Source: an uncultured bacterium (lineage in GTDB: Bacteria > Patescibacteriota > Patescibacteriia > CAIQCM01). From it: DNA of 64,000 nucleotides. Location of the stretch: the NCBI GenBank assembly GCA_963708045.1, contig OY970181.1, forward strand, positions 387,740 through 451,739. The letters are read 5' to 3'. Under the pieces are notes generated by a model, which was given only the letters and a program-made list of their open reading frames with translations, did not search any database and was not told the origin of the DNA. Made by a program: the position numbers and the translations under genes. Below, one piece after another: positions 7,878 to 48,830 of the stretch; position 1 is the stretch's first letter; every line of letters starts with the position of its first letter.

Positions 7878-7911
7878 GTGTTAGGGGTTAGCGTTTAGGG
7901 TTTAGTTAAAA

Positions 7912-7946
7912 AAATTCTCCCCGCCAGAGGCGGGGAGAATTTTTTA
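7912..7946 (+). terminator. intrinsic terminator
   Basis: ttctccccgcc agag ggcggggagaa plus TTTTTT. Confidence 0.6.
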
Positions 7947-7947
7947 T

Positions 7948-8047
7948 GGCGTCATTCCGAACCCGTGATGTTGTTTTGTCTAGGGTGAGGAACCTCAAGG
8001 CAGGAATTGAGACGTTGAGATCCCTCGCTCGCGCTCGGGATGACGAC
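7948..8047 (+). repeat. MITE-like ~105 bp repeat, copy A (GTCATTCCGA...CTCGGGATGAC)
   Basis: Shares termini and internal blocks (GAGACGTTGAG, CCCTCGCTCGCGCTCGGGATGAC) with 7 other copies in the window. Confidence 0.6.
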
Positions 8048-11668: not shown

Positions 11669-12172
11669 TTATTCGCCAACTAAATAATTTAAATTTCGGC
11701 TCCAGGCTGAGAATGTTGTGGTGCAACCGTTAGGTACCGAGGTTGGGTTTTCCAGGCTAAGTGCCATCATATAATTAGTCGGCAGGCCTGTATATCCAAA
11801 CGCGCATTTACTGATTGGTTTATACCCGCGCACGTAATAATAAGCATAAGGCGTTCCGGTGTTGATTGGGTCAACCGGTATGTTGCTTAAATAATTTGGT
11901 TTAATTTCCATTGCCGTAAAACTTCCGCCTGGATAAGCGACCGAGACGCAGTCGCAGGTGGCTGGGCAAGCCTGCCCGCAAGTTGGATAAGCGCCAGTTT
12001 CGTCAAAGTAGAGATCAAGGGCGGTTTTGATTTGTTTAAAATCAGCAACGCGTTTGGCGTCCCGCGCTTTGCTTCTTGAGTTACTCAAAGACACGACCGC
12101 AATCGTGCTGAGGAGGCCGATAATGGCAATGACGACCAGTAATTCAATAAGAGTAAAAGCACGATGAGACAT
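11669..12172 (-). CDS. type IV pilin-like protein (prepilin-type N-terminal cleavage/methylation domain)
   Basis: MSHRAFTLIELLVVIAIIGLLSTIAVVSL followed by a PilA/GspG-like segment (KRVADFKQIKTALDLYFDETGAYP). Multiple Cys residues. Confidence 0.8.
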   Translation of the reverse strand: MSHRAFTLIELLVVIAIIGLLSTIAVVSLSNSRSKARDAKRVADFKQIKTALDLYFDETGAYPTCGQACPATCDCVSVAYPGGSFTAMEIKPNYLSNIPVDPINTGTPYAYYYVRGYKPISKCAFGYTGLPTNYMMALSLENPTSVPNGCTTTFSAWSRNLNYLVGE

Positions 12173-12181
12173 GACGAAATA

Positions 12182-12206
12182 TCTAATGTCTAATATCTAA
12201 TCCGAT
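12182..12206. repeat. ctaat/attag word-repeat array immediately upstream of a pilin start codon
   Basis: atctaatgtctaatatctaatcc. Confidence 0.5.
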
Positions 12207-12292
12207 AAACGACCAATTGGTTTTGTGCTGATATTATACCACCAATACAAAAATGCCCCGATAATCATCGGGGCATTTTCATTTCTAACTAT

Positions 12293-12353
12293 ACGCTAAA
12301 CGCTATACCCTAAACCCTAAAAATTACACTTCAATTATAACCGGAAGAATCAT
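12293..12353. repeat. direct repeat: duplicated copy of the rnj 3' end (last 9 codons MILPVIIEV* plus ccctaaa flank)
   Basis: ccctaaaaattacacttcaattataaccggaagaatcat matches 14025-14063 with 2 mismatches. Confidence 0.65.
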
Positions 12354-12354
12354 T

Positions 12355-13170
12355 TTATTCCGTCACGACCGTAGCCACTTGGTGCGAACGAAGACCTTCG
12401 GCGTACATTTTTTTTATTTGCGCTAAACTAAGGGTTGAAGAATAAACTCGCGTGTCGTCTATGTTGCCGTGGAACGGATCGCCTAATGCGATTGGTGAAT
12501 AGCTCCCGATCGCTAAAGTGACACTATTATAGGCAGTTATTGTACAGGTGGCTGTTTTGCCGACCTCGTGTCCGTTAAAGAAAAGTTTCATCGTCTGGTT
12601 GACCGAGTTGATTGAAAGGGCGACCATTGACCAGGAGTTCGCGGGAATTTGCGGCCCAGTCAGGTATAAAGAATACGACCAGCCCACACCAGCACAACTC
12701 ATCAAGGATTCCAAGTTGCCGTCATGGATTCGATATTCGTATTGCGCTAATTTGGAGAGGATCGTATTATATCCAGTCGTGCTTGTCGGATAGATCCATG
12801 TTGTGAAAGTCGCATTGGTCGCCTGTAGGTTAAGCGTTGAACTAAGATAATTTGATCCTGAAAAATTCGCCGAACATCCGGTATTTCCTGGGGCGTTGCT
12901 CGTTGACCATCCGGCGCCGCCACTCCAGGTCGCAGTGTTGCCGTTTCCAGAAGCATCGCTCGCGGTATTGCCGGAACATTCATTAAAAAGCCATTCGCCG
13001 ACGAGTTGGTCGCCGAGCCCGTTGCGCAAGCTTTGATCAAACGATTGTCCGGCAGCAATTTTTCCTTTATCACGTGCGGTCACCAAAGACACGACCGCGA
13101 TTGTGGAAAGCAGTCCGATAATCGCGATCACAACAAGAAGTTCAATTAGGGTAAAGGCGCTACGTTTCAT
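12355..13170 (-). CDS. type IV pilin-like protein with LamG/concanavalin-like domain
   Basis: Prepilin N-terminus KRSAFTLIELLVVIAIIGLLSTIAVVSL. LamG_3-like segment (GEWLFNECSGNTASDASGNGNTATW). Confidence 0.8.
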   Translation of the reverse strand: MKRSAFTLIELLVVIAIIGLLSTIAVVSLVTARDKGKIAAGQSFDQSLRNGLGDQLVGEWLFNECSGNTASDASGNGNTATWSGGAGWSTSNAPGNTGCSANFSGSNYLSSTLNLQATNATFTTWIYPTSTTGYNTILSKLAQYEYRIHDGNLESLMSCAGVGWSYSLYLTGPQIPANSWSMVALSINSVNQTMKLFFNGHEVGKTATCTITAYNSVTLAIGSYSPIALGDPFHGNIDDTRVYSSTLSLAQIKKMYAEGLRSHQVATVVTE

Positions 13171-13220: not shown

Positions 13221-13757
13221 TCAATACCAACTTGATGCTCCTGGCGTGAAGATGGCCCAACCGCTATTTGTGTGGGTGGGGTCATAAAACGGATCACTTG
13301 CTGAGAGTGTCCCTTCCGGCGTGCAGTAAGCTAATAATTTATAATCTATTCCGTTTGAAGTATACACATATGTATTCCAGCCAGCCTGACTCCTGCAACC
13401 AGCTAAGGCAGAGCTTGGGTTAGTTTTGCCCATATTGGTATCGTCTGGTAGTCGTCCGATATAATTAGGGGCTAGATTGGGAATCCATCCGTTTGAACCA
13501 GAACTGTCATGGCTACCAAAAGTTGAAGTTACTCCCCACCAACTGCAACACCCGCTTACGCCCGTTGAAGGATAGGCGTCAAAGTTGGTGTAATAGAGTT
13601 CCAGCGCTTTAGAAATTTGGACGAGATCAACTTTTCGCTTCTGGTTTCGCGCGTTCATTCTCGTTGTACTTAAAGACACCACCGCAATCGTGCCGAGGAG
13701 GCCGATAATGGCAATGACAACAAGTAATTCAATAAGAGTAAAAGCACGACGAGTCAT
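13221..13757 (-). CDS. type IV pilin-like protein
   Basis: MTRRAFTLIELLVVIAIIGLLGTIAVVSL. The 5' ~75 nt are ~95% identical at nucleotide level to the pilin at 11669..12172. Confidence 0.8.
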   Translation of the reverse strand: MTRRAFTLIELLVVIAIIGLLGTIAVVSLSTTRMNARNQKRKVDLVQISKALELYYTNFDAYPSTGVSGCCSWWGVTSTFGSHDSSGSNGWIPNLAPNYIGRLPDDTNMGKTNPSSALAGCRSQAGWNTYVYTSNGIDYKLLAYCTPEGTLSASDPFYDPTHTNSGWAIFTPGASSWY

Positions 13758-13765
13758 TAAACGAA

Positions 13766-13803
13766 TGTCTAATTTCTAATGTCTAATGTCGAGTGACTAA
13801 TCC
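13766..13803. repeat. ctaat word-repeat array, upstream of pilin start and abutting a MITE-like copy
   Basis: gtctaatttctaatgtctaatgtcgagtgactaatcc. Confidence 0.5.
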
Positions 13804-13922
13804 GCCGTCATTCCGAGCCTGTAAGGTTGGTTTGTCCAAGGCTCGGCCGAGCTCAGCTCGGCGAGGAACCACGGAGCCTGTTTTGAGACTTTGAGTTCCT
13901 TCGCTCCGCTCGGGATGACGCC
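13803..13922 (+). repeat. MITE-like repeat copy B
   Basis: ccgccgtcattccgagcctgtaaggttggtttgtccaaggc...gagactttgagttcc...ctcgggatgacgcc. Confidence 0.65.
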
Positions 13923-14033
13923 TAACGACAGACGCTGGCTTTGGCCAACGAACTCACTGATATTATATCACTAAATTAAAAATATCATCGCTTGAGCGAT
14001 GATATTTTTTAACTCTACGCTAAACCCTAAAAA

Positions 14034-15944
14034 CTACACTTCAATAATAACCGGAAGAATCATCGGGCGGCGTTTGGTTTGTGACCAAAGGTATTGGCCA
14101 ATGTCATCGCGAATTTTATTTTTGGTATATTCCTCAAAAGCCGGGGAACGCGGGTCAGCGTCGTGAAGGATTTTGCGGACACGGGCGCGCGATTTTTCCA
14201 CAAGTTCGTGCGCGTCTTTAAGATAAACGAAGCCGCGGGAAATAATATCGGGACTGCCGATAAGTTTGCCGGTGTTTCGTTCCATCGTGCAGATGACAAC
14301 AAACATTCCGTCCTCGGCCAGCTGCAGGCGGTCACGCAAAACGACGTGCGAAACGTCGCCAACGCCCAGGCCGTCCACCATAATATATTCAATCGGGTAT
14401 TTGTCGTCGGTCATTTTGCCGCCGTTTCCATCAAATTCAACAATCTGTCCGTTGTCCGGAATAAAAATGCGGTCGCGTGTTACGCCAACTTCTTCGGCCA
14501 AGTCGGCATGCGCGTGGCGCAAGAACAGGTTGGCGTAGCCGGGGAGGAAATAGCGCGGCTTTGTGAGCATAATCATTTCTTTAAGCTCTTCTTGTTTGGC
14601 ATGACCGCCAGCGTGCACGTCCATATTGGCATAATGCACGACTTTAGCGCCTTGGCGGATTAGGGTGTCTTTAAGCGATTGCACCGTGCGTTCATTTCCT
14701 GGAATGACCGAAGAAGAGAAAATAACCATATCGCCCTCTTCTAAACGGACGGATTTGTGTTCGCGGTTTGCGATGCGCATTAGAGCTGCGTTTTCTTCGC
14801 CTTGCGCGCCAGTGCAGATGATAATAAGTTTTTCCGGAGCAATGTGCTTAATCTCGTCTTCTTCAATAATCGTGCCCGGCTTGTATTTCATATAGCCAAG
14901 CTGGTGGGCAATTTCCACGTTGGAATGCATTGATCGTCCGAGAAGCAAAACTTTGCGGCCGGTTTTTTCGGCGATCGTTAAGAGTTGCTGAACGCGGGTG
15001 AGAAGCGAAGCAAACGTGCCGACGATAATGCGGCCTTTGTGTTTGGAAACAATACCTAAAAGTTCTTCGCTTACGACCGTTTCCGAAATTTGTCGTCCGG
15101 GTGAAGCGGCCGAAGTTGAATCGGACACAAGCAAGAGGACGCCGCGTTCGCCAAAAGCGGCGACGCGCGCGGGGTCGGCCGGCAGTTCTGGCGGAATCGG
15201 GTCGCGATCAAATTTAAAGTCACCGGTAAAAATTACCGTTCCGTATGGCGTATGCAAAGCAACGCCGAAAGAGTCGGCAATATTGTGGTTAATATGAAAT
15301 GGTTCAAAAACAAAATTTTTGCCCATCTGAATGCGAACATCGGCCGTTTTAACCAATTGAATTTTGAGTTGTTGAAGGTTGCCGTATTCTTCTTGGCGTT
15401 TTTTAATAAGACCAGCGGTAAGCGGGGCGGTATAAATTACCGGCCAGCCAAGCTTGGGCATAACGTGAGGAATGCCGCCGATGTGGTCATAGTGTCCATG
15501 GGTAATAATCACGCCGCGGATATTTTTTTCTTTTCCGCGCAAGCAGGAAGTGTCAGGGATGATGTAATCAATCCCAGGCATTCCTTCTTCGGGAAACATC
15601 AAACCCATGTCCACGATAATAATATCATCGCCCATTTCCACGACGGCGCAATTTCTTCCGACTTCTTCTAGTCCGCCAAGTGCGTAAACTTTTAATTTGG
15701 TCGGATCGTATTTAATTGTCGGCATTGGTGGCTTCACGACTTCGCGCGGTTCGGCGCGAAAACGCGGACCACGTCCGCCTCCGCGCGCGCCGCCGGAATG
15801 TTTTTGATTAGGCGGATGCCCGCTTGGTTTTTTGGAACCTTGATTAAAACGATTTACACCCTGATTGCTTTTTGCCGGTGTAAAGGGGGCGTGATTTTTT
15901 GGATTGTCGTGCCTTTGAACCGGGTGCTGTTGGTTTTGCACCAT
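14034..15944 (-). CDS. rnj: ribonuclease J (metallo-beta-lactamase/beta-CASP), with ~75-aa Arg/Gly-rich N-terminal extension
   Basis: HGHYDHIGG motif plus beta-CASP region. N-terminal low-complexity stretch GGARGGGRGPRFRAEPRE. Confidence 0.85.
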   Translation of the reverse strand: MVQNQQHPVQRHDNPKNHAPFTPAKSNQGVNRFNQGSKKPSGHPPNQKHSGGARGGGRGPRFRAEPREVVKPPMPTIKYDPTKLKVYALGGLEEVGRNCAVVEMGDDIIIVDMGLMFPEEGMPGIDYIIPDTSCLRGKEKNIRGVIITHGHYDHIGGIPHVMPKLGWPVIYTAPLTAGLIKKRQEEYGNLQQLKIQLVKTADVRIQMGKNFVFEPFHINHNIADSFGVALHTPYGTVIFTGDFKFDRDPIPPELPADPARVAAFGERGVLLLVSDSTSAASPGRQISETVVSEELLGIVSKHKGRIIVGTFASLLTRVQQLLTIAEKTGRKVLLLGRSMHSNVEIAHQLGYMKYKPGTIIEEDEIKHIAPEKLIIICTGAQGEENAALMRIANREHKSVRLEEGDMVIFSSSVIPGNERTVQSLKDTLIRQGAKVVHYANMDVHAGGHAKQEELKEMIMLTKPRYFLPGYANLFLRHAHADLAEEVGVTRDRIFIPDNGQIVEFDGNGGKMTDDKYPIEYIMVDGLGVGDVSHVVLRDRLQLAEDGMFVVICTMERNTGKLIGSPDIISRGFVYLKDAHELVEKSRARVRKILHDADPRSPAFEEYTKNKIRDDIGQYLWSQTKRRPMILPVIIEV

Positions 15945-16208: not shown

Positions 16209-16365
16209 AAAAGACTGTGCGGGATACGTTTTCCAACCCTTAGTCCACAAGGGGGAGAGGGAAAAATTGTAATAAAATCGCCGAGAAAATTCTCAGATGA
16301 CTTTAAAATAGAGGAAAACTAAGTCTATAAATATACCACATTGGCGCTTTTTTGGCAAGTACTGA

Positions 16366-16463
16366 TTAGGGTATAGCGTATAGCGTTCAGGGTTTAGTTC
16401 TATAAGAAACGAACAATCATTCTCGCGCTAGAAAACTATACCCTATACCCTTGACCCTAAACT
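16366..16463. repeat. long imperfect palindrome built from ttaggg/ccctaa words
   Basis: ttagggtatagcgtatagcgttcagggtttag ... ctataccctatacccttgaccctaaac. Confidence 0.5.
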
Positions 16464-18317
16464 CTATTTAAGACCCACGGCCTTCTTAATGTACCAATCG
16501 GTAATATTTGCAAAGCGGTCGGATGGCGATGAGATTGAAGTAACGGAAAAGTTCTTTACGTTTGTTGACTGGGGGTAAAGAAAACGAGGTGAGTAAAGGA
16601 AAATTGCGGACGAATCAGCCGTGATAATTTTTTGAAATTCTCTAAGCATTGCTTGTTTGGCGTTGGCGTTGATCGTCGCTCGCGCTTTTTCTAAAAGTTC
16701 GTCAACGCGGCGGTTTGAGTATTTAGACAGATTAAGTCCACCCTCAGCTTGCGACGAATGCCAGAAGGCGAATGGGTCGCCACCCTCGCTTAAGATTTCG
16801 CCAAAAATAAGCGCCTCGTAGTTTGCGTCCTTGATTACGGTTTTTTGAGCATCGGCCGCGGACACAAGAACAATATTCACTTTTGCGCCAATCGCTTCCC
16901 AATCCTGCTTAATCAAATTCGCGGTTTTTTGGCTAACCTCAGTATTAATTGCCGTCAGCTTAATACTAAGTTCGGTTATAGTTGGCGGTGGCTGGATTTT
17001 TGCCGTTGATTTTACTGTTTGGGTCTTTGTGCGAACGGTGGAGTTTTCCGACAAAACAAAGCCAGCTTTTTCTAGCAGGGCTTTGGCTCCAGCTGGGTCA
17101 TAGTTATAAATGGCGACGTCAGCAGAATAATTTTTATCGTCAAGCGGCGCGTTGCTTATAATCGCCGTGTTACCGGTCGCGTCAATGATGATTCGTTCGC
17201 GGTTAATGGCCATAGCCAAAGCATGGCGGACATCAAGATCGGAAAAAATCGGCTGGGCTTTAGGGTTAAAGAAGATCGCCGTATCTTCGTCAAGATTTAT
17301 TTCGTGAGTGTTTACGTTTGGGAGTTTGAGGATGGCGGGATAGAGGCGCGATGGAACAAAGTTGAGTCCGAAAACGGCGTTCGCGGAAAGTTTTTCAACG
17401 GCCGTTTCGTAATCGTCAAAAAATTTAAAAGTAATTTTATCAATTTTTGAATTTGATCCTTCGGTCGCGGCCAAAGTGTAAGAAACAATGTCGCCGTCCG
17501 AATTACGAGTAAAATTTAAAAAATGATAAGCACCGCTTCCGATTGGTTTTAGGTTAAAATCGGAATTTGCGACCGTAGCAGGATCGGTTTTTTCCCAGAG
17601 GTGTTTAGGAATAATGCCCACCGTGAGCAGGGAGGGGAAGTAAGAATTGGGTTCTTTTAGAACAAAGGTAATTTTTTCTTGGTCAATGACGTTTACAGAA
17701 ACGCCGGAAAATTTTTTTGCAATCGGACTTTTCCATATTGGGTTCACGATCGTTTGAAAAGTATAGGCAACGTCAGTGGCGGTAAGTTCGGTTCCGTCGC
17801 TAAAGCGCGCGTTACGCAAAGTGAACGTATAAATTTTACCATCAGCCGATACAGAAACATTATTGGCAAGATCAGTTACGAGGTTGCCCGATCCGTCGTG
17901 GCGGTATAAACCTGAATAAACCAGGCTAATAATATCCTCGTCAACGTCATTCCCGTTTGAAAGAATTGGGTTTATCGTTCGCGGACGACCAACGATTCCT
18001 TCGGTGTATTCGCCGCCCGCGGCTGGGACAAGGGTTATGTGGCGCGCTACCCAGCCGCCAGCAACAAGAATAAGGCCGATTGTAAAAACGGAAATGCCGA
18101 TCGTGATTATTTTTTTCTCTTGCGGCGTTGTAACTTTTCCAAGATGCCGCCATTGGCTTAGACTGGGGAGTCTGCGCTTGGCAACAATATGGTAAGCGAT
18201 CATTAAGTCGGCGCGTTCTTCGCGCTGGCTTTTTAAGTTATCGGATTTTTTTTTAAACCATTCGCGGCTGACAGTAAAAATTTTTTTAAAAAAATTCATA
18301 CGAATGGTAATGATCAA
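16464..18317 (-). CDS. ABC transporter substrate-binding protein, family 5 (peptide/nickel-type), membrane-anchored
   Basis: N-terminal TM anchor followed by an SBP_bac_5-like domain. ~600 aa. Confidence 0.6.
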   Translation of the reverse strand: MIITIRMNFFKKIFTVSREWFKKKSDNLKSQREERADLMIAYHIVAKRRLPSLSQWRHLGKVTTPQEKKIITIGISVFTIGLILVAGGWVARHITLVPAAGGEYTEGIVGRPRTINPILSNGNDVDEDIISLVYSGLYRHDGSGNLVTDLANNVSVSADGKIYTFTLRNARFSDGTELTATDVAYTFQTIVNPIWKSPIAKKFSGVSVNVIDQEKITFVLKEPNSYFPSLLTVGIIPKHLWEKTDPATVANSDFNLKPIGSGAYHFLNFTRNSDGDIVSYTLAATEGSNSKIDKITFKFFDDYETAVEKLSANAVFGLNFVPSRLYPAILKLPNVNTHEINLDEDTAIFFNPKAQPIFSDLDVRHALAMAINRERIIIDATGNTAIISNAPLDDKNYSADVAIYNYDPAGAKALLEKAGFVLSENSTVRTKTQTVKSTAKIQPPPTITELSIKLTAINTEVSQKTANLIKQDWEAIGAKVNIVLVSAADAQKTVIKDANYEALIFGEILSEGGDPFAFWHSSQAEGGLNLSKYSNRRVDELLEKARATINANAKQAMLREFQKIITADSSAIFLYSPRFLYPQSTNVKNFSVTSISSPSDRFANITDWYIKKAVGLK

Positions 18318-25610: not shown

Positions 25611-26159
25611 TTATGCGTTACTTGGCAACGCCGCCATAATTTTGTCAGCGTTTTCCATTGGGCCTTTGGCGTTGGTCGTGTCCAAGACAAAATCAAAATG
25701 GCTCGGGTCAAAGCATTTTTCCACGCCATAAAGACGCTTAAATTTTTGCACAAAACGTTGAACGCGTTCTGCGTTTATTTTTTTGGTGTCGCGAACGGTG
25801 GCGTAATTTGGCTCGTCTGGCCGGTTGCCGTATTTTTGGTCGGAAAAAATTCGGCGTGCGCCTTCGTTTTCGTCGCAAGTAACGAGAATTTTAAAAGATT
25901 TGGGAATTAGAAACCATGCAAGCTTGCCTTCAACAATAATATTGTCTTCGGTTTCGCCTAATTTTTTTTGATAATTATCTATTAAAATATCGGCCTCGTC
26001 GCCGCCTGACATAAGCTCGTCAATGGTTAGGCCTTTATTTTTTGCGATAATACCAAGACGGTCGCCAGCCGAAATAAGCGTATAGTTAAGACGCTTGGCA
26101 AGTTCTTTGGCAACCGAAGTTTTTCCCGAACCGGGCGTGCCAGCGATAGTTATTATCAT
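25611..26159 (-). CDS. cmk: cytidylate kinase (archaeal/AAA-type Cmk family)
   Basis: P-loop IAGTPGSGKTSVAKELAKRL, VEGKLAWF, and Cytidylate_kin2-like layout. Confidence 0.6.
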   Translation of the reverse strand: MIITIAGTPGSGKTSVAKELAKRLNYTLISAGDRLGIIAKNKGLTIDELMSGGDEADILIDNYQKKLGETEDNIIVEGKLAWFLIPKSFKILVTCDENEGARRIFSDQKYGNRPDEPNYATVRDTKKINAERVQRFVQKFKRLYGVEKCFDPSHFDFVLDTTNAKGPMENADKIMAALPSNA

Positions 26160-26160
26160 A

Positions 26161-26246
26161 GGTGTTAGGTTTCAGGTGTTAGGTTTTAGGTTTAGGGCGT
26201 CGGGTTGTCCCCTGACACCTTGAACCTTTAACCTAAAACCTAGGGG
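26161..26246. repeat. long imperfect palindrome built from ttaggt/ttaggg words
   Basis: aggtgttaggtttcaggtgttaggttttaggtttagggcgtcggg / cccctgacaccttgaacctttaacctaaaacctagg. Confidence 0.5.
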
Positions 26247-27106
26247 ATGTTAGTAAATTCTGGTGGCATTTCAGATTCATACGATACCTCGTTTCCGTTT
26301 AAATCAACAAATCCGATTTTGGAAGCGTGGAGAAGGAGGCGTTTTGGTTTAAGCCCTGCTTTGGTTGGAGCGTAGAGCGCGTCGCCGGCAATCGGGTGGC
26401 TGATAAATTTTAAGTGCACGCGGATTTGGTGCATTCTTCCAGTTTCGGTGATTATTTTTAGCAAAGTTGATTTTTTGCCGCGGCGCAAAACTTCATAATG
26501 CGTAACCGAGGCCAGGCCGTCTTCTTTAACCGCCATTTTTCCTTTGCGATTTCGGCCAAGCGGCTCGTTAATCGTTCCTGCTTCAAGTTTGGTTGACCCA
26601 AGGACAACGGCGCAATATTCTTTTTTAATTTTGTGATCGGCAAATTGTTTTTTAAAGTAATCGTAGGCTTTTTGCGTTTTAGCGGCGATCATTAAGCCGG
26701 AAACGTCGCGGTCAAGACGGTGAACAATGCCTGGGCGGTGCGGCTCGCCGACTTCGCGAATGGGCGGAAAATAATTCAGGAGAAGGTTTACGAGCGTGCC
26801 CTTGTGTCTCGTCGCGGTTGCGTGAACGGTAAGGCCGGCGGGTTTTTCAAGGATGATATAGTCTTTTGTTTCGGCAATTATTTTGAGCAGTCCGTCTTCG
26901 GCTGGAAGCTCCGAGGCGTCCGCGGGAAGAGTATTAATTTCATCGCCCGCCTTTAAGCGAATGCCGCCGCCTGCCGGTTTGCCGTTAAGGCTGGTTTCGT
27001 TTCGGCGAATGATATGCTGAACCGCCGAGCGGGTTATACCAAGCGCTTCGGCTAAATAGACGTCTAGCCGCTTTTTTGAATTTTGTTGATCAATTATGAA
27101 TTTCAT
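26240..27106 (-). CDS. RluA-family 23S rRNA pseudouridine synthase (RluD-like, S4 domain)
   Basis: N-terminal S4-like region and catalytic HRLDRDVSGLM motif. Confidence 0.8.
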   Translation of the reverse strand: MKFIIDQQNSKKRLDVYLAEALGITRSAVQHIIRRNETSLNGKPAGGGIRLKAGDEINTLPADASELPAEDGLLKIIAETKDYIILEKPAGLTVHATATRHKGTLVNLLLNYFPPIREVGEPHRPGIVHRLDRDVSGLMIAAKTQKAYDYFKKQFADHKIKKEYCAVVLGSTKLEAGTINEPLGRNRKGKMAVKEDGLASVTHYEVLRRGKKSTLLKIITETGRMHQIRVHLKFISHPIAGDALYAPTKAGLKPKRLLLHASKIGFVDLNGNEVSYESEMPPEFTNIP

Positions 27107-27186
27107 TTTTTAAACTTTTAACTTTTAGCTTTTAACTTTTAGGTGGCTAACTAAAAGTTAACAGTTAACAGTTAAAAGTTTTTAAC
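27107..27186. repeat. long imperfect palindrome built from cttttaa/ttaaaag words
   Basis: aaacttttaacttttagcttttaacttttaggtgg / ctaactaaaagttaacagttaacagttaaaagttt. Confidence 0.5.
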
Positions 27187-28701
27187 AAACTTCTCCGCCT
27201 CTTTTGCTGTTTTAATTTTTCCTTCCAATTGCGCTTCGCGAAGGGCGGCAATTAGTTTGCCGACTTCTTCGCCGGGCTCTAGTCCGGTTATTTTCATTAT
27301 CCGACAACCATCAATCAATGGCGGCGGTAATTTTTTACCCGCGCCCATTGCGGCGAGCTCATCAATTCTTTTCACGAGCAGGTCAAGATGTTTCAGGTGG
27401 TCGGGTTTCATTCCGCCATCCGGAATCGTTGCCATTGAGTCGGCGTATATTACCATTAAAAGCTCGCGGCCGGGAAGGTTGGGATTAAAGAAATATTTTT
27501 CCAGCGTGCTCGGGCGAATGTCGTCAATATTGCCATGAACGGTAAAAAGGTGGTGGTGGATGATCCAGCCAATGTTGTCCGGAGAAACGCCGATGTCTTC
27601 GGGCGCGGAAAACGTCAGTCGCTTGGCAATCGCTTCAGTCATTTCCGCGCCAACGCGGTCGTGGCCGTTGTAGCGAATGCGGTCGGTGCCGTCGCGTTCC
27701 GGTGTTTGAATTGTCGCCGGTTTTCCAAGATCGTGGAACAGTGTCGCCATTATAACGAGCGGCGATGGCGTTTCATTGTCAAAATATTTTTTAAATCCTG
27801 GCTTATAAAGCTCGGCAAGGGCGAGTCGCGTGTGCGCCCAAACGTCGCCTTCGCTGTGAAAGTTAGTTGGTTGAGGACAACCGCGCATTGTGAGAAGCTC
27901 CGGCATCAGGTTGTCGGTCGCCGTGGTTTCGTAAAAAAGATCAAAGGCGCGCGCGGGATCGGCAATAAATGATTTTAGTATTTCGCGGGCAATCGTTTCT
28001 GTGGAAATAACGCGAACGTTTCCTTCGCGAGTGGAACGGAAGTCGTTTAAATTTTTCATAAAAACGCGCATCGCGGTCAGGGTGTCGTTATCAATCGCAA
28101 AGCCAAGCTGAACGGAAAAACGAATGCCGCGCAAAATGCGCGAGTAGTCTTCGCGAAAACGTTCCTCGGGTCGGCCGACTGTGCGGATTATTTTTTCTTT
28201 TAAATCAGCTTGTCCGTTAAAGGGATCAATCAGCATCGGTTTTGGATAAAGACGATAAGCCATCGCGTTAACCGTAAAATCGCGCCGCGCCAAGTCATCT
28301 TCAATTTTTAAATTTGGGTCGGAAGAAACTTCTACGTCGCGATAACCGCCTTCATTAAACGAGTGCTCGGTACGAGGAAGGGCAATGTCCAACGCCCGCC
28401 CAGAATTTTGTCGCGGTTTTGCTTCAACCGATTTTGGCACAAACTTCCATACGCCAAAACGTTTGCCAACAAGGTTGACTGTGCCATGCGTTTTTAAAAA
28501 TTTTTCAAGCGCCGTGGGTGTTACGCCACGAACGACAATGTCAAAATCTTTGCTTCCGTCACGGTTAAGGAGTGCGTCGCGCACCGAGCCGCCGACCAAA
28601 AAGATCTCGCCTTTTTTAAAGCGGGTTTTAAAAGCTCCGACGAGCGTGCGGAGCGGTTCCTTGCGTCCGAGGGCGGAAAGTTTGGCTAGCTTCTTGTCCA
28701 T
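27172..28701 (-). CDS. cca: CCA-adding tRNA nucleotidyltransferase / poly(A) polymerase family with HD domain
   Basis: GGSVRDALLNR...DFDIVV head domain and HD motif (HDLGK). Confidence 0.75.
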   Translation of the reverse strand: MDKKLAKLSALGRKEPLRTLVGAFKTRFKKGEIFLVGGSVRDALLNRDGSKDFDIVVRGVTPTALEKFLKTHGTVNLVGKRFGVWKFVPKSVEAKPRQNSGRALDIALPRTEHSFNEGGYRDVEVSSDPNLKIEDDLARRDFTVNAMAYRLYPKPMLIDPFNGQADLKEKIIRTVGRPEERFREDYSRILRGIRFSVQLGFAIDNDTLTAMRVFMKNLNDFRSTREGNVRVISTETIAREILKSFIADPARAFDLFYETTATDNLMPELLTMRGCPQPTNFHSEGDVWAHTRLALAELYKPGFKKYFDNETPSPLVIMATLFHDLGKPATIQTPERDGTDRIRYNGHDRVGAEMTEAIAKRLTFSAPEDIGVSPDNIGWIIHHHLFTVHGNIDDIRPSTLEKYFFNPNLPGRELLMVIYADSMATIPDGGMKPDHLKHLDLLVKRIDELAAMGAGKKLPPPLIDGCRIMKITGLEPGEEVGKLIAALREAQLEGKIKTAKEAEKFVKNF

Positions 28702-29974: not shown

Positions 29975-30046
29975 GGGCACGTAGCTCAGCGGTAGAGCGG
30001 ACGTCTTATACACGTCTGGTCCTAGGTTCGATCCCTAGCGTGCCCA
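29975..30046 (+). tRNA. tRNA-Ile with anticodon UAU (decodes AUA)
   Basis: 72-nt cloverleaf. Acceptor GGGCACG/CGTGCCC. Anticodon stem GACGT/ACGTC. Loop CTTATAC gives anticodon TAT. Confidence 0.75.
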
Positions 30047-31460: not shown

Positions 31461-31560
31461 GCCGTCATTCCGAGCCTGTAAGGTCGTTTTGTCCAAGGCG
31501 AGGAAACACGAAGCTTGCTAGAGACTTTGAGTTCCCTCGTTACCACTCGGGATGACGCCG
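31461..31560 (+). repeat. MITE-like repeat copy E
   Basis: gccgtcattccgagcctgtaaggtcgttttgtccaaggcgaggaaacacgaagc...ctcgggatgacgccg. The spacers between copies are also similar (ctcgct..ctacccc). Confidence 0.65.
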
Positions 31561-34682: not shown

Positions 34683-34779
34683 ATAGCTCCCACCCTACTG
34701 TCTCGGTAGCCCCCGATTCAACTCATAAGGTAATGGGTTAGATTACGAAATATACGGCTTTTGGTCAAGACCTGTGCGA

Positions 34780-34870
34780 ATGAACCATATACCATGAACC
34801 ATGAACAATACGTAAAAAATTACGAATCATTATCGGATGGTATATGGTTCATGGTGCGTGGTACATGTTT
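34780..34870. repeat. long imperfect palindrome built from ccatga/catggt words in divergent promoter region
   Basis: gaaccatataccatgaaccatgaacaatacg / cggatggtatatggttcatggtgcgtggtacatg. Confidence 0.5.
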
Positions 34871-34894
34871 ATTGTTTGATATTACCGCCCTGTT

Positions 34895-39275: not shown

Positions 39276-39373
39276 TTTTTTCCTCCCCTTAAGGTAAGGG
39301 GAGGTAGGAGGGGTTATGAAAGGATTATAACTCACCCTACCCGCTCTTACCTTACAGAGAGGGGAAAGAAATT

Positions 39374-39478
39374 CCGTCATCCCGAAACGCCGAAGCGGTG
39401 AGGGAACTCAAAGTCTCTAGCAAGCTTCGTGATTCCTTGCCTTTGACAAACGACCTTACGGGCTCGGAATGACGGCGG
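39374..39478 (-). repeat. MITE-like repeat copy F (inverted orientation)
   Basis: ccgtcatcccgaaacgccgaagcggtgagggaactcaaagtctc...ctcggaatgacggcgg is the reverse complement of the family consensus. Confidence 0.65.
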
Positions 39479-39512
39479 ATTAGAAATTAGATATTAGGTA
39501 TTAGGTATTCAA
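39479..39512. repeat. attag word-repeat array immediately upstream of argS start
   Basis: attagaaattagatattaggtattaggtattc. Confidence 0.5.
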
Positions 39513-39514: not shown

Positions 39515-41232
39515 ATGTCTCCACTCTCAAAAATAAAACAAGAAATCATCAACGCGATTGCCCAAGTTTATCCAAACTCAACTTTGGTTGTTTCGGATAT
39601 TGTTCCCGCGCCAAGTCCGGCGCTCGGTGACCTCGCCGTACCAATGTTTAAGCTCGTAAAAGTTTTAAGTAAGTCGCCGAGCGCGATTGCCGAAGAGCTT
39701 CGCGAAAAAATGCCGTCTTTAAAAACGATTCAGAGCGCCGAAGTTGCCGGGCCGTATTTAAATTTGCGCTTGAATCAATCAGTAGTCATAAACAACGTAA
39801 TGGCGGCCATTACCAAAGAAAAAGCAAAGTACGGCAACGGAAAAGCAACTAAGGAAAAAATAATGGTTGAATTTGTCGCGCCGAACATTAATAAGCCGCT
39901 TCACTTGGGACACCTTAGAAACGCCGCGCTTGGCGAATCACTCTGCCGGATTTTAGAAGCCGCCGGCAACACGGTTGTTCGCTCTAATTTACTAAGTGAC
40001 AGGGGTGTTGGTGTTGCCAAAGCGATGGTGGCCTACGAACATTTTGGTGGCAACGAAACGCCAAAAAGCTCGGGAATGAAAGGTGATCATTTTGTTGGAA
40101 AATATTACGTGATGTTTGAACAAGAAAAAGTTCGGCACCCAGAAATTGAAAACGAAGTGGCTGAGTCGCTTAGAAAATGGGAAGCGGGGGACAAGGCCAC
40201 GCGCGCTCTTTGGCGGGTAATGACCGACTGGTGCGTAAAGGGACAAAACGAAACGCTAAAAATGCTTGGCGTTAAATACGACAAAGTTTATCGCGAAAGC
40301 GCGTTTTATAATGAAGGCCAGAAAATGGTTTTGGCGGCCTTGGAAAAAGGGATTTTTTCTAAAGACGAAAAAGGAAACGTTGTCGCCAAACTTCCGAACG
40401 AACCTGATAAAGTTGTTCTTCGTGCTGACGGGACGGCCGTCTATATTACAACCGACTTGCCGCTTACGGTTAAAAAAATGACTGAATTCAAATTGTCGCG
40501 GTGCTTGTGGGTTGTTGGAATGGAACAAGACCAGCACTTGCGCCAGCTTACTGGTATTATGCGGCTTTTGGGTTACAGGTGGGTAGACGCGCTTGAACAT
40601 GTTTCTATGGGCACGTCGCTCTTCCCGAAGGCCGGATGAAGTCGCGCGAAGGCACGGTCGTGGACATTGATGAATTAGTAGAACACCTTTCCAAGCTCGC
40701 GGCGGCGGAAATTAAAGAGCGCCACGACTTTTTGGATCAAGCCGAAGTGGACAAGCGCGCCGAAGAAATCGCTCTTGGCGCGGTTAAGTTTTATTTGTTG
40801 TCAGTTACGGCGACGAGCGGAATGACTTTTAATCCAAAAGAGTCGTTGTCCTTTAACGGCAAGACTGGTCCGTATTTGCAGTATACAAATGCACGCATTG
40901 CTTCTATTTTGCGCAAAGCCGCTCATGATAAAATAAAAATTGGCCGAATTGACGCCTCTAAACTTATTGAGCCGACGGAGTGGCAGCTTGTTTTGCGCTT
41001 GTCTGAGTTTGCCGATGCTATAGAAGCGGCCGCAAGCGGTCGCGACCCTTCGGTAATTGCCCGATATTGTTACGATCTTTCAAAATCATTCGCCGAATTT
41101 TACGAAAACGTTCCGGTTATAAAAGCCGAAGCAATATTTCGCTCCTCGCGGCTCGCGCTTTCGGCCGCCGTCGGGTTGGTGCTTGGTCGTAGTTTGGAAC
41201 TGCTCGCCATCCCCGCGCCAAAGGAAATGTAG
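39515..41232 (+). CDS. argS: arginyl-tRNA synthetase, interrupted by a 1-nt frameshift near 40636 (two ORFs 39515..40639 and 40636..41232)
   Basis: N-terminal Arg_tRNA_synt_N, HLGHLRN (HIGH-like), and catalytic core in ORF1. KMSKS-equivalent MKSREG plus DALR anticodon-binding domain (YLQYTNARIASILRKA) in ORF2. The frame shifts inside the ccggatgaag run. Confidence 0.8.
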
Positions 41233-43671: not shown

Positions 43672-44250
43672 ATGTTAATAAAAGAGTTTGCACAAGTTAT
43701 CGGTGGTTATGTCTTTCGGGAAGCGATACAGCCGGATAATAACGGCGATATCTGTGTTTTTCAAGCCAAAGACCTCACTGCTGGCGAAGCTATTGAAAAC
43801 GTTGGTACACTTACAAAAATTTCTTATAACATCCCCGAGTACGCCGGTCATCTTAAAAAGAACGACATTTTGGTTGTCGCTCGGGGTATGAGGTCAGGGT
43901 CATTTCGGTCGGCGGTTTTTGTTTCCGACGCACCAAACGTAATCGCCTCGTCCTCCATCCACATAATTCGGATAACCGCCGCTGGCGTAATGCCGGAATA
44001 TGTTTCGCGGTATCTTAATTCAAAAATTGGCCAAGACGCGCTTACGCAGATCGTTTCCGGTTCGTATATCGGCTCCCTGCCGCGTAAGGAAGTGGAAAAA
44101 ATAAAGATCCCCATCCCGACACTAGAAAAACAAAAAGCAGTTGTGGATCTGGATCGGAATATACGTGAGCAAGAAAAAATTATCAACCGTCAGAGCGAAA
44201 TAAAGCACAATCTTATGAACGCAATCTTTACCAGCCTAGCCGCTAAATAA
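43672..44250 (+). CDS. hsdS: Type I restriction-modification specificity subunit, half-size (single target recognition domain)
   Basis: 192 aa: one TRD plus the conserved C-terminal helix region typical of HsdS halves. Confidence 0.65.
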   Translation: MLIKEFAQVIGGYVFREAIQPDNNGDICVFQAKDLTAGEAIENVGTLTKISYNIPEYAGHLKKNDILVVARGMRSGSFRSAVFVSDAPNVIASSSIHIIRITAAGVMPEYVSRYLNSKIGQDALTQIVSGSYIGSLPRKEVEKIKIPIPTLEKQKAVVDLDRNIREQEKIINRQSEIKHNLMNAIFTSLAAK

Positions 44251-44255
44251 ATATT

Positions 44256-45770
44256 ATGCCAACTGAAAAAAAATACACTCAGGAAGACTTAAACAAAACG
44301 CTTTGGGCGGCGGCTGATTCGTCACGCAGCAATGTGGACGGTGGTGTTTACAAGGATTACGCCCTCACGATGCTATTTTTAAAATACGTCAGCGATTTGA
44401 ATAAAAAGCGCTACGCCGAGTATAAGGCGCGTTTTAAGAACGACGAAAAGCGCGTTGAAGAAAAAATGAAGCTGGATCGCTTTTATCTTCCTCCTAAGTC
44501 GTCGTTTGATTACATCTACAGTAAGATTGAGGAAGACAACATTGGCGAAGAAATTAATAAAGCGCTACACCGCATTGAAGACGCCAACAAGGAAAAGCTG
44601 GACGGCGTGTTTAGTGTGGACTTTAATTCTGAATCAGTACTGGGAAAATTGGATTCGCGCAATAAAATGCTCCGCCATCTTATTCAGGATTTTGCCAAGA
44701 TTGACCTTTCGGATGTCGGCGACGACATTATCGGAAATTCGTACATGTACATGATTGAACGCTTTGGCGCCGATGCTGGGAAGAAAGCCGGAGAATTTTT
44801 CACAACTAAATCCGTGGCGCGGCTCGTGGCGATGCTCGCTGAACCAAAAGAAGGCGACCGGATTTCCGACCCTGCTTGTGGATCGGGCGGCTTGCTTCTT
44901 TTGGCTGGCGAAGAGGTTGAAAAGAAAGGCTCAAAAAACTACGCGCTTTATGGTCAAGAATCAACTGGCTCCACTTATCAGCTTGCACGGATGAATATGT
45001 TCTTGCACGGCAAAGACTCGGCGCGGATTGAATGGGGCGACACGCTTAATAACCCACTCTTGGTTGAAAATGACCAGCTTATGCATTTTGATGTGGTCGT
45101 TGCCAATCCGCCGTTCTCGCTTAAAAAGTGGGGCGCCGAACACGCCGGATCAGATAAATACAACCGTTTTTGGCGCGGCATTCCGCCCAAGGACAAAGGC
45201 GACTTTGCCTTTATTACTCACATGGTGGAAACCGCCAAACCCAAAACCGGCCGCGTGGCCGTTATTGTTCCGCACGGTGTACTTTTTAGGAGCGGTGCCG
45301 AAGGTAAAATCCGCACCGAGCTATTAAAAGAAAATATCATTGATACCGTGATCGGATTACCTGCTGGTTTATTTCAGACAACCGGTATCCCGGTCGCCGT
45401 TTTGGTTATTGACCGCTCACGCGAAAAAGGCGGCGCGAATGAAAAGAAGAAAGATGTTTTGTTCATTGAGGCCTCTAAGGAATTCAAACCCGGAAAAGCG
45501 CAAAACACCTTGACCGACGAAAACATCGCCAAAATTTTTGACACCTACAAACAACGCAAAAATATCACTAAGTTTTCACGCAAGGTTGAATTAAAGGAAA
45601 TTGAAGAAAATGATTTCAATCTCAACATCACACGCTATGTTGACACCTTCATTGAAGAAACTCCGATAGACATCAAAGCCAACCTCCGTGAACTCGCCGC
45701 CCTTGAGCCGGAGCTTAAGAAGCTAGAAAAACAGATGGATGAGTATCTAAAAGAGCTTGGAATTAAATAG
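44256..45770 (+). CDS. hsdM: Type I restriction-modification DNA methyltransferase subunit (N6-adenine)
   Basis: HsdM N-terminal domain, then an N6_Mtase domain with NPPF motif (VVANPPFS). Confidence 0.9.
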   Translation: MPTEKKYTQEDLNKTLWAAADSSRSNVDGGVYKDYALTMLFLKYVSDLNKKRYAEYKARFKNDEKRVEEKMKLDRFYLPPKSSFDYIYSKIEEDNIGEEINKALHRIEDANKEKLDGVFSVDFNSESVLGKLDSRNKMLRHLIQDFAKIDLSDVGDDIIGNSYMYMIERFGADAGKKAGEFFTTKSVARLVAMLAEPKEGDRISDPACGSGGLLLLAGEEVEKKGSKNYALYGQESTGSTYQLARMNMFLHGKDSARIEWGDTLNNPLLVENDQLMHFDVVVANPPFSLKKWGAEHAGSDKYNRFWRGIPPKDKGDFAFITHMVETAKPKTGRVAVIVPHGVLFRSGAEGKIRTELLKENIIDTVIGLPAGLFQTTGIPVAVLVIDRSREKGGANEKKKDVLFIEASKEFKPGKAQNTLTDENIAKIFDTYKQRKNITKFSRKVELKEIEENDFNLNITRYVDTFIEETPIDIKANLRELAALEPELKKLEKQMDEYLKELGIK

Positions 45771-45773
45771 TCT

Positions 45774-47588
45774 ATGAAAATTTCATCATTAGAAATTAAA
45801 GACTTCCCGCCAATTAAAAATCTAAAGATGGAAAATCTTGGGGATATTGTAATTATTGCTGGAGCAAATGGTTCGGGGAAAAGCAGACTTAAAGAGGCTA
45901 TAGTAAGTACCTTTCAAGGTGGGAATCAAATGTCCATCTCTTTGCTGGCAACAAGAGAAAAAGAAAATGAAGATTTTGGAGGAGGTACTCTAACTGCTAC
46001 ACAAGGGGTTGCAAGTCAAACGCTAGCTGAGTATATGAGGAAGAGGCGGTATGGCCGTGGCCAGTATGTTGGTTCTCTGGTCCAAATAGATTCGCAACGA
46101 AATATTCAGACCACTCAATACCCACAGGTTAGTTGGCAAGTTTCTGATCCAGATGAAGTCGAAACGCCAAGTACTTTTTATTATCAAAATTTTACCAACA
46201 GGTGGCAAGACTTCATGACTTATATTCATAAAAAAGTAGCTGCCTACCAAAATCAACTAGCTACGGAAGTTATCAATGGGTCAGAAATAACAGCAAAGAC
46301 TATTAAGGAAAAATTGCCACACCCACTACAGAAATATAAAGAAATCTTTAAAACTCTACTTTCGGAAAAAGAGCTTCTTGATATTGATCCATTATCACCT
46401 CGTGAATTTCAATACCGGGATAAAACCGGCGTAGTCTTACCATTTAATTCCTTAAGTTCTGGCGAGCAAGAAGTTGTTAAGATTCTGTTTGATGTTGCAA
46501 GGAAAGATATAAAAGACTCGGTAATTATTGTGGATGAGCCTGAACTTCATTTACACCCAACTCTTACATTCAAATTAATTGAAGCTCTTAAATCCGTGGG
46601 GGATCACACAAATCAATTCATATTTTTGACACACTCTGCTGATTTAATTTCTACCTATTACTCGACTGGTAATGTTTATTTTATAGACTCAGAGCAGGGT
46701 GGCGCTAACCAGGCACATAGGCTAAGCGATCTTAATCACAGCCATAAGGAGCTGGTAAGCTTGATAGGTGAAAATCTTGGGCTGTTTGCAGTAGGAAAAA
46801 AACTTGTATTTGTTGAAGGTGAAGATTCTAGTACGGACAGGCTTGTATACCATGCATTGGCACAAAAGTATTTGCCAGAGGCAAAGGTCATACCCGTTGG
46901 TTCAGTTGAGAATTTGATTACTTTAAATGTTTTTGAGCGGCAGATTAGAAATTCTATATTTGGAATTGACCTATATATGGTCCGAGATAAAGATGGGCTA
47001 TCTACTACTCAAATTAGCGCTCTTGAAGATGGTGGTAAGATAAAGTGTCTTAGGAAAAGACATATTGAAAATTATTTTCTTGATTCAGATGTTTTGTTTA
47101 AAGTTGCGGAAAAGCTTTATATAACCACTACAAAACCTACTGTTACACATCAGTATATTGAAGAACAGCTTAAAATCATTGCTTCTGAACAAGTTAGTCT
47201 TAACTTACTTCAAAATACAAAAGAATATATAGCAACAAATCATAACTTTGATATTCCTACTGTCAAATCACTTGATACAAAAAATTGCGTTGATGTGGTT
47301 AATGAGTTCTCTTTTGAAATAGCGAGTGTTTTACATAGCCTTGTGTCTAACCTGTCTGACGTAAAGTTGAAAGAATGGATGAACGGAGAAAAAGAAAGAC
47401 TTGATGGCGCGTTGACCAGCGATAAGTGGAAAGATGAATTTAGGGGTAAAAATATTTTCTCAAAGTTATGTAGTGATGTCCTTGGTGAAGATAAAATCAA
47501 AATACGACAAGTATATATTGACGTTGCTTTGAATGAAAAACCGGAAGTTTTTAGTGATATTAAAGGAATACTGGAAAGTTTTAAGTGA
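45774..47588 (+). CDS. OLD-family-like ABC-ATPase + TOPRIM-like nuclease (Gabija GajA-like architecture), embedded in the hsd operon
   Basis: Walker A IIAGANGSGKS, signature-like LSSGEQEV, Walker B IIVDEPELHLHP, and H-loop FLTHS. C-terminal TOPRIM-like Glu (FVEGEDSSTD) and DxD (YMVRDKDG). Start is 3 nt after the hsdM stop, and the stop overlaps the next hsdS start. Confidence 0.65.
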   Translation: MKISSLEIKDFPPIKNLKMENLGDIVIIAGANGSGKSRLKEAIVSTFQGGNQMSISLLATREKENEDFGGGTLTATQGVASQTLAEYMRKRRYGRGQYVGSLVQIDSQRNIQTTQYPQVSWQVSDPDEVETPSTFYYQNFTNRWQDFMTYIHKKVAAYQNQLATEVINGSEITAKTIKEKLPHPLQKYKEIFKTLLSEKELLDIDPLSPREFQYRDKTGVVLPFNSLSSGEQEVVKILFDVARKDIKDSVIIVDEPELHLHPTLTFKLIEALKSVGDHTNQFIFLTHSADLISTYYSTGNVYFIDSEQGGANQAHRLSDLNHSHKELVSLIGENLGLFAVGKKLVFVEGEDSSTDRLVYHALAQKYLPEAKVIPVGSVENLITLNVFERQIRNSIFGIDLYMVRDKDGLSTTQISALEDGGKIKCLRKRHIENYFLDSDVLFKVAEKLYITTTKPTVTHQYIEEQLKIIASEQVSLNLLQNTKEYIATNHNFDIPTVKSLDTKNCVDVVNEFSFEIASVLHSLVSNLSDVKLKEWMNGEKERLDGALTSDKWKDEFRGKNIFSKLCSDVLGEDKIKIRQVYIDVALNEKPEVFSDIKGILESFK

Positions 47589-48820: not shown

Positions 48821-48830
48821 AAATAACAAT

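Follow-up and report, generated by a model that had tools for sequence, protein, structure and literature searches.

The intergenic spacers of a 64,000-nucleotide (nt) stretch of DNA from an uncultured member of the Patescibacteria (contig OY970181.1; referred to here as the window) raise a simple question: what are the long imperfect palindromes, assembled from short tandem words, that lie between its genes? Two of them, palindromes B (26160-26246) and C (27107-27186), lie on either side of a gene for an RluA-type pseudouridine synthase. The initial annotation had described such spacers as hairpin-forming imperfect palindromes built from tandem words. We found these sequences where it had placed them, and the palindromes that it listed were the top inverted repeats of the whole window. 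The words were indeed repeated in tandem; several had been given as 5- or 6-mers, and the true period was 7 throughout. The arrays are heptanucleotide simple sequence repeats (SSRs) of the kind first named short tandemly repeated repetitive (STRR) sequences in cyanobacteria and since found in many bacteria. When a short spacer holds two arrays of one family set back to back, the result is an imperfect palindrome of 60 to 100 nt with a stem broken about every 7 nt.

The period was established in several ways. The window is 89% coding and contains 47 spacers totalling 6.9 kb. The contig to which it belongs is 1,188,223 bp long, and those homologues of its NusA that bear a name, with 61 to 64% identity, belong to Patescibacteria group and Uhrbacteria genomes. 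Tandem Repeats Finder called a period of 7 (or 14/21) at every site listed earlier and in about 10 more spacers. Using a self-match scan that required at least 17 of 21 identities at a given lag, we detected 12 segments at lag 7 over the window and none at lags 4 to 6, 8 to 11, 13, or 15. Within the 47 spacers, self-matching yielded 13 lag-7 arrays and no array at any other lag from 4 to 12; in 300 shuffles, the count averaged 0.03 and never exceeded 1. Autocorrelation of the intergenic DNA peaked at lags 7, 14, and 21, and the coding sequence of the window had no peak at these lags. All repeat words in the window share this period, and 12 of 15 arrays were mostly intergenic. Such spacers are frequent, as had been supposed: 10 of the 47 carried an array at the strict threshold, and a looser threshold gave 22 arrays.

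The arrays also have the other features of STRR-type SSRs. Their 7-nt units are joined head to tail in at least about three copies, they are located in spacers, they fall into a few dispersed word families, and unit number varies between related copies. The word TAG[G/C]GTN makes up five to seven arms, ATTAGNN occurs at six loci, [C/G]ATGGTN at four, and AACTTTT at one. The window encodes housekeeping proteins and several pilin-like proteins, and the arrays precede genes of both kinds (those for arginyl-tRNA synthetase [ArgRS], YidC, and the cytidylate kinase [CMK]-like protein, GroEL in one relative, and the pilin-like proteins). A phase-variation (contingency) SSR would be expected in the promoter or open reading frame of a surface or restriction-modification gene. 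Since arrays begin at the stop codon, they cannot shift a reading frame.

A number of other identities were considered and rejected. Like architecture in independent assemblies from NCBI, JGI, ENA, and Logan ruled out an assembly artefact. The arrays have no spacers between units of only 7 nt, which rules out a CRISPR-like array. At gathering thresholds, Rfam matched only the RNase P RNA and tRNAs in the window and nothing at the arrays. MITEs (miniature inverted-repeat transposable elements) were ruled out because the arrays have neither a defined length nor terminal inverted repeats (TIRs). Nor are they repetitive extragenic palindromic (REP) sequences or the REP doublets known as REPINs, as there is no fixed unit and the arms differ in unit number and at variable positions; no Y1 transposase was found among the window proteins. 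G-quadruplex formation (the model of Rehm et al.) was rejected as a unifying property because most words (ATTAGNN, AACTTTT, CATGGTN, and AGGTNNN) lack G3 tracts, and TAGGGTN units are interspersed with TAGCGTN units. Finally, target-site duplications of transposons are an unlikely origin of the 7-nt units, since none was seen by eye at the ends of the MITE-like elements in the window.

The two focal palindromes belong to a string of genes on the minus strand in the order CCA-adding enzyme, palindrome C, RluA-type synthase, palindrome B, CMK-like gene, and L19. Palindrome B is made of a TAGGTNN variant of the TAG[G/C]GTN family. Its left arm, (AGGTNNN)n, occupies 26160-26199 and its right arm, (NNNACCT)n, 26214-26246, and its centre reads GGCGTCGGG-TTGT-CCCCTGACACC. 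Read along the transcribed minus strand, it starts from the TAG (26240-26242) that stops the RluA-type gene, and its last unit reaches the ATG of the CMK-like gene (26157-26159) as ...ACCT-ATG; the predicted stem stops 17 nt short of it. Palindrome C consists of AACTTTT and AAAAGTT words and forms an inverted repeat with 90% complementarity. It overlaps the TAA stop codon of the gene for the CCA-adding enzyme (27172-27174), and 8 nt separate its end from the ATG (27104-27106) with which the RluA-type gene starts. Both palindromes fill the whole spacer, from the stop codon to 8 to 17 nt before the next ATG.

To determine how well the arms pair, we folded both strands as RNA, and also with DNA parameters, and expressed the energies as z-scores against dinucleotide shuffles. 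Inverted pairs of heptamer arrays, defined as the same word on opposite strands of one spacer, were present at six sites, and five of the six folded significantly. Palindrome B (folded as 26156-26250) gave z-scores of -4.9 on the minus strand and -4.5 on the plus strand. For the two strands of palindrome C (folded as 27100-27190), the values were -5.0 and -6.7. Three further palindromes, A (folded as 16360-16468), D (as 34775-34875), and F (as 57296-57392), gave -2.7 and -2.8, -3.8 and -5.0, and -5.3 and -5.8, respectively. The expectation that the arms base-pair failed at the sixth site, 56826-56892, where the folded segment 56822-56895 gave nonsignificant scores of -1.5 and -1.0. Folding with DNA parameters produced z-scores of -2.1 to -6.0. 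The stems of B and C are runs of 5 to 6 pairs; at the variable heptamer positions, the arms are noncomplementary, which breaks the stems about every 7 nt. We also looked for selection specific to one RNA strand, and the six sites showed no consistent preference for the transcribed strand. Since both strands fold about equally well, the feature is a palindrome in the DNA and not an RNA signal tied to one strand.

We then compared the same spacers in related genomes, as the initial annotation had proposed, and found heptamer hairpins there that differed in word and in number of units. The related loci are labelled L001, L081, L082, and L161 to L166. In five genomes, a heptamer hairpin makes up the spacer between the RluA-type and CMK genes; the word differs in every one of them, and the fold z-scores range from -3 to -8. 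The word is TAGGTNN in the window, TAGCGNT in L161 (RluA 86% identical), CTACAAS in L162 (78%), TAGGGTN in L164/L165, and TAGAANN in L001 (69%). In four of these genomes, both arms clearly bear the genome's own word; the exception is L162, whose left arm is degenerate and complementary only in part. Between the CCA-adding enzyme and RluA-type genes, the window and L082 have an A[A/G]CTTTT hairpin, and L001, L161, L162, and L164 have a CTAAT array, with or without a MITE. The array after the SBP_bac_5 gene, which forms part of palindrome A in the window, is also kept in L164 (18291-18350). L166, which comes from the same sample as L161 and whose NusA is 88% identical to that of the window, carries arrays in 7 of 11 spacers. 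Its groES-groEL spacer has a TAG-anchored sense array followed by an antisense array that abuts the ATG, and the fold of this pair is not significant; its RF-to-Sua5 spacer is spanned from stop to start and folds with a z-score of -5.8. These comparisons show an architecture that has lasted long in the lineage and a sequence that turns over quickly.

The sizes of the arrays point to their origin. A segmental duplication of a pilin cassette within the window (12140-12375 versus 13725-14085) has flanks that can be aligned, and its two spacers differ in array length. The TAG[G/C]GTN array has five units in one copy (12286-12326) and three in the other (14012-14036), a difference of 13 to 14 nt; the ATTAGNN array is CGG(ATTAGNN)3 at 12176-12204 and CGG(ATTAGNN)5 at 13762-13804, a difference of 14 nt. 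All four arrays read on the minus strand, and each pair differs by two units. Unit number likewise varies among orthologous arrays in the relatives. Spacers on same-strain contigs from another run match those of the window in length, as judged from gene coordinates only. Because size changes by whole 7-nt units, the differences between paralogues and orthologues point to slipped-strand mispairing, which would both create and resize the arrays. They agree with the earlier suggestion that a common mechanism generates these spacers. In addition, the two arms of a palindrome usually bear the same word even though the word differs between related genomes, which indicates that the arms evolve in concert; copying within the palindrome or selection for pairing could keep them alike.

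The same duplication, measured from 11669 to 12375 and from 13221 to 14085, comprises the pilin-like gene, its upstream spacer (with the promoter-like sequence CTGATATTATA, a terminator, and the arrays), and the final 30 nt of RNase J. The three-unit array starts from the TAG stop codon of RNase J and is followed by a terminator at 13983-14010; the five-unit array is followed by one at 12259-12280. These two terminator hairpins occupy the same position and have unrelated stem sequences. On the downstream side, CGG(ATTAGNN)3 ends 6 nt before the ATG of one pilin-like gene (11669-12172), and CGG(ATTAGNN)5 precedes the ATG of its paralogue (13221-13757). A MITE-like element (13805-13921) adjoins the latter array and is present in only one copy of the duplicated spacer.

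Next, we considered how the arrays are placed relative to genes. Among the 91 genes of the window and three related loci, the stop triplet recurred at +7 and +14 in 12, including 8 of the 26 with TAG stops; by chance, about 0.02 would be expected. Since 7 is coprime with 3, an array anchored at a stop codon gives stops in all three frames within 17 nt. In a crude test, Shine-Dalgarno (SD)-like motifs preceded only 6 of 58 starts. The gap between palindromes B, C, and F and the next gene is too short to hold a promoter, and the groES-groEL spacer of L166 has a like array layout; together, these observations suggest that B, C, and F are transcribed intercistronic elements rather than efficient terminators.

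On this basis, we propose that the focal hairpins are transcribed inside operons, spanning from the stop codon to about 10 to 20 nt before the next start, and that they most likely act as intercistronic RNA hairpins. REP hairpins in Escherichia coli can protect upstream mRNA from 3' exonucleases, and the heptamer hairpins might similarly form a barrier that shields the upstream message. They might instead be processing sites for RNase III. Alternatively, the stem, which includes the stop codon, might occlude the downstream initiation region until the upstream ribosome melts it, thus coupling translation of the two genes; such a role would operate in an organism largely devoid of SD sites. Taken together, the identity of the arrays as heptamer SSRs, their origin by slippage, and their function as intercistronic RNA hairpins form an account to which we assign a probability of roughly 0.6. 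The functional part is what we infer from sequence and gene context.

Several observations weigh against this account. Divergent promoters flank palindrome D (34778-34872), which is upstream of a conserved -35 box and may not be transcribed at all. In L081 and L163, the spacer between the RluA-type and CMK genes is short and has no array or hairpin, so the hairpin is dispensable. The two strands fold about equally, and the variable heptamer positions are uncompensated between the arms, which leaves no strand-specific sign of selection on RNA. Some paired arrays form no significant hairpin (56826-56892, the groES-groEL spacer of L166, and L164:18288-18352), and pairing may be a by-product of two arrays that are each anchored at a gene boundary. 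As for the origin, plain slippage does not account for the period of 7 or for the cores and ends conserved across loci and genomes.

The remaining arrays of the window fall into the same families, and their ends are conserved as CGG... and ...TAGTT. Arrays of the first family, TAG[G/C]GT[T/A], run in the sense of the upstream gene, start on its TAG stop codon, and end in TAGTT. They are followed either by a classical terminator (7874-7908, 12286-12326, and 14012-14036) or by their own inverted copy, as in palindrome A (16364-16466). The initial annotation had listed 7880-7905, 12293-12320, and 14017-14030 as flanks of a palindrome; instead, these are single arrays adjoining ordinary terminators. 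The array at 7874-7908 extends on the plus strand from the TAG stop codon of a CHASE2-cyclase gene to TAGTT, and its terminator occupies 7909-7945. Palindrome A is composed of TAG[G/C]GTN units; on the minus strand, it starts with the TAG (16464-16466) that stops the SBP_bac_5 gene, and a promoter-like site for tRNA-Leu comes after it.

Arrays of the second family, CGG(ATTAGNN)3-5, end 2 to 6 nt before an ATG. In addition to the two in the pilin cassettes, four-unit arrays on the plus strand were found at 39476-39511, ending 4 nt before the ATG of ArgRS with a MITE-like element (39374-39475) adjoining, and at 61808-61843, ending 2 nt before the ATG of YidC. The latter holds the TAG stop codon of NusA. 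On a contig from another sequencing run, NusA is 100% identical but 10 residues shorter (window 61799-61829), and that contig stops about 35 nt past the stop codon of the gene; because the NusA stop codon in the window lies inside an ATTAGNN array, the array may affect the gene end or the assembly. Two arrays of this family are reversed and read on the minus strand. One, of four units, at 63518-63553, overlaps the TAA stop codon of the gene at 62615-63535 and adjoins a MITE-like element (63558-63659); the other, upstream of NusA (60455-60494), is degenerate.

The third family, [C/G]ATGGTN, makes up palindrome D, palindrome F, and the short inverted pair at 56826-56892. Palindrome D is flanked by divergent genes for a DHH-family protein and valyl-tRNA synthetase, and the -35 box directly downstream of it belongs to the DHH promoter. 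Palindrome F (57300-57386) lies between a gene for a 112-amino-acid hypothetical protein and a UPF0102 gene and ends about 5 nt before the ATG at 57391. The short pair, with its weak predicted hairpin, is wholly intergenic, as the true start of the next gene is at 56964. A four-unit TGTTCAT array on the plus strand (5815-5850), with the RNase P RNA gene on one side and the CHASE2-cyclase gene on the other, may be a relative of this family. The fourth family, AACTTTT, makes up palindrome C.

Three other explanations of the arrays were weighed. The first, which we regard as unlikely, is that a single-strand nucleic-acid-binding protein, such as a cold-shock protein (CSP) or other OB-fold protein, an S1-like protein, or a protein with an RNA recognition motif (RRM), uses them as binding platforms and recognises a 5-nt core once in every 7 nt. 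The platforms would mark 3' and 5' untranslated regions (UTRs), and the palindromes would be incidental or would switch between a bound and a folded state. A core of 4 to 5 nt with 2 to 3 variable positions and conserved ends, recurring at many loci and in relatives, would suit such a protein, as would the fixed register of the arrays to stop and start codons, the small number of SD-like motifs, and the poor pairing of some paired arrays. A like proposal exists: MacGregor suggested that CSP, S1, or CsrA binds TAACTGA arrays and pointed out that CspB binds one heptamer per protein (PMC4679880). However, unrelated cores coexist in the window (TAGGG, ATTAG, CATGG, and CTTTT) and words are swapped in the same spacer, which would demand several proteins or very loose specificity. 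No gene for a CSP, RRM, or similar protein was found among the window proteins, which is uninformative for a genome of 1.19 Mb.

A more elaborate proposal builds on the same register. The arrays might format the UTRs of this candidate phyla radiation (CPR) lineage: an array anchored at a stop codon would shut all three reading frames within 17 nt, one anchored at a start codon would offer an unstructured, SD-independent landing site, and the hairpin of a pair would couple or gate downstream translation, possibly read by a protein with a 7-nt register. We consider this speculative and quite improbable. If true, it would be the first functional explanation of the widespread periodicity of a prime number, 7, in bacterial intergenic repeats.

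We give similarly little credence to the opposite view, in which replication slippage, favoured at 7-nt units, leaves the arrays behind as neutral or selfish by-products that are tolerated only between genes, where they are harmless, with palindromes arising by template switching and no function for either. The length changes in 7-nt steps, the fast turnover of words and loss of arrays in some relatives, the equivalence of the two strands, and the presence of one palindrome in a probably untranscribed divergent promoter region all fit this view, and polymerase slippage is an idea cited in the literature (PMC4692102). It also fits the unrelated genomes that we sampled, only through RluA similarity, in which period-7 arrays occurred at 4 to 5 per 10 kb, some as inverted pairs (Planctomycetia L013, Omnitrophota L023, and Patescibacteria L002); examples are L013:10923-10979, L023:14827-15003, and L013:3014-3034, which uses TTAGGTN. 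It is harder to reconcile with the same few word families and conserved termini across loci and genomes with only about 70 to 88% protein identity, with the 12 of 91 genes whose stop codon is the exact start of an array, and with the persistence of arrays in a streamlined genome of 89% coding density.

The third explanation, that the palindromes are terminators, either Rho-independent as the initial annotation had suggested or lacking a U-tract, is very improbable: palindrome A does come after a gene end and before a promoter-like site, single arrays of its family directly adjoin classical terminators, and arrays flank a terminator between convergent genes at L161:4030-4150, but no T-run follows A, B, C, or F on the transcribed strand, they are absent from the output of the terminator scan, only 5 to 17 nt separate B, C, and F from the next ATG within operon-like gene strings where termination would silence the downstream gene, a like layout separates groES from groEL in L166, and one palindrome stands between divergent genes. 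Classical terminators with a GC hairpin and a T-run were seen in many other spacers of the window.

Our literature search for heptamer arrays in Patescibacteria or other CPR bacteria found nothing. The cyanobacterial STRR families that Mazel and colleagues reportedly described in 1990 comprise several heptanucleotide words, each tandemly amplified and dispersed over many intergenic sites. The window resembles them in having several distinct dispersed heptamer words in one genome and differs in phylum and words. To our knowledge, palindromic pairing and codon anchoring are not part of the STRR description. STRR sequences are mentioned by Rehm et al. (2015), who found heptamers to be over-represented and cited the hypothesis of polymerase slippage (PMC4692102). 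The initial annotation had not recognised the pattern among described repeat classes, but intergenic tandem repeats of heptamers are documented (PMC6344855, PMC4679880), as are inverted pairs of them (PMC4692102). In a survey of 7006 prokaryotic genomes, tandem heptamers were the most abundant intergenic tandem repeats, with "no clear clue" to their function (PMC6344855). The arrays described here are a known yet unexplained class of bacterial repeat, not a new one.

Among the individual systems, Xanthomonas genomes come close, with 70 to 75 inverted pairs of GGGAATC arrays each, whose type (single or inverted pair) is kept between species as lengths vary (PMC4692102). In either system, tandem arrays of one heptamer word stand near each other on opposite strands between genes and are capable of forming a stem-loop, and the spacer between the RluA-type and CMK genes also keeps its type while its length varies. 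In Xanthomonas, however, a single G-rich, quadruplex-capable word is used, whereas the window has at least four families, most of them not quadruplex-capable (ATTAGNN, AACTTTT, and CATGGTN), with words that vary between relatives, arrays in register with stop and start codons, and a CPR host of about 1.2 Mb. The TAACTGA arrays of Beggiatoaceae, cyanobacteria, and Bacteroidetes (MacGregor 2015) have 2 to 6 units, are mostly forward, and end a few nucleotides before start codons (PMC4679880). The CGG(ATTAGNN)n arrays likewise end just before a start codon, and both words contain stop triplets; in contrast, the BOGUAY genome has essentially one word and only one inverted pair, whereas palindromic pairs are common here and a second, stop-anchored family is present. 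REP sequences and REPINs (PMC3116915) are also intergenic imperfect palindromes between genes of an operon, a REPIN being two inverted units that form a long hairpin. REP sequences, however, are fixed units of 20 to 40 nt without internal 7-nt periodicity and are mobilised by RAYT transposases, whereas the arrays have no fixed unit, change length in 7-nt steps, and have no transposase in the window. In Nostoc, heptamer arrays near start codons affect expression of recF and recO in reporter assays (bioRxiv 10.1101/2022.06.06.494920). Compared to these known heptamer repeats, the local peculiarities are the several word families, the exact anchoring to stop and start codons, and the stop-to-start palindromes inside operons.

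Other repeats were noted as well. The MITE-like element is about 100 to 135 nt long, has TIRs CCGTCATTCCGAGC...GCTCGGGATGACGC, and is present in eight copies (7949-8046, 13805-13921, 31169-~31275, 31302-~31440, 31462-31558, 39374-39475, 63558-63659, and 63671-63774). It has a defined length, TIRs, and both filled and empty sites, as expected of a MITE. The paralogous site at 12204/12205 in the pilin duplication is empty (CTAATCCG^ATAAACGAC), so the element has moved. Three copies stand in tandem before tRNA-Val, and three adjoin the CGG end of ATTAGNN arrays; elements and arrays are also associated in the relatives (L001:1909-1987, L161:1244-1345 and 2870-2975, and L166:3577-3680). In L162, a CTAAT heptamer array (920-975) is broken by a small GC hairpin (CCCGCCGCTTAGGCGGG), resembling the very small mobile repeats that Elhai is said to have described in 2008 as nested in Nostoc heptamer arrays. 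Long imperfect palindromes or hairpins without heptamers and rich in GGGGAG/CTCCCC, among them CCTCCCCTTAAGGTAAGGGGAGG and three copies of CTCTTTGCAAAAGAGGGG, were found at 39277-39367 and 4960-5235, downstream of the tyrosyl-tRNA synthetase gene and beside the RNase P RNA gene.

A type I restriction-modification island (43672-53578) encodes an HsdS fragment, HsdM, an AAA ATPase, HsdS, a Bro-N protein, HsdR, and a YgjP-like peptidase. Its GC content is 0.35 to 0.43, compared to about 0.47 elsewhere, its genes are tightly packed, and no heptamer array was found within it. ArgRS appears to be split into a catalytic part (39515-40639) and a DALR anticodon-binding domain (40636-41232) that overlap by 4 nt, which could reflect a split gene, a frameshift, or a sequencing error. 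A tRNA-Ile with the anticodon UAU (tat) at 29975-30046 was predicted by ARAGORN and matched the Rfam tRNA model; such a tRNA is an uncommon bacterial way to read AUA.

For genome annotation, these results mean that gene callers and terminator predictors should not read the heptamer hairpins as terminators and that stop codons embedded in arrays may shift gene ends. For the biology of the lineage, the streamlined CPR genome of about 1.2 Mb, which gives a sizeable share of its scarce noncoding DNA to the arrays, is a compact test system. The exact register with stop and start codons, together with an architecture that is kept while words are swapped, makes it a system in which slippage debris could be tested against signals for translation or RNA processing. 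It also constrains the mechanism: CPR bacteria have little accessory machinery, so whatever generates the arrays must exist in so reduced a genome.

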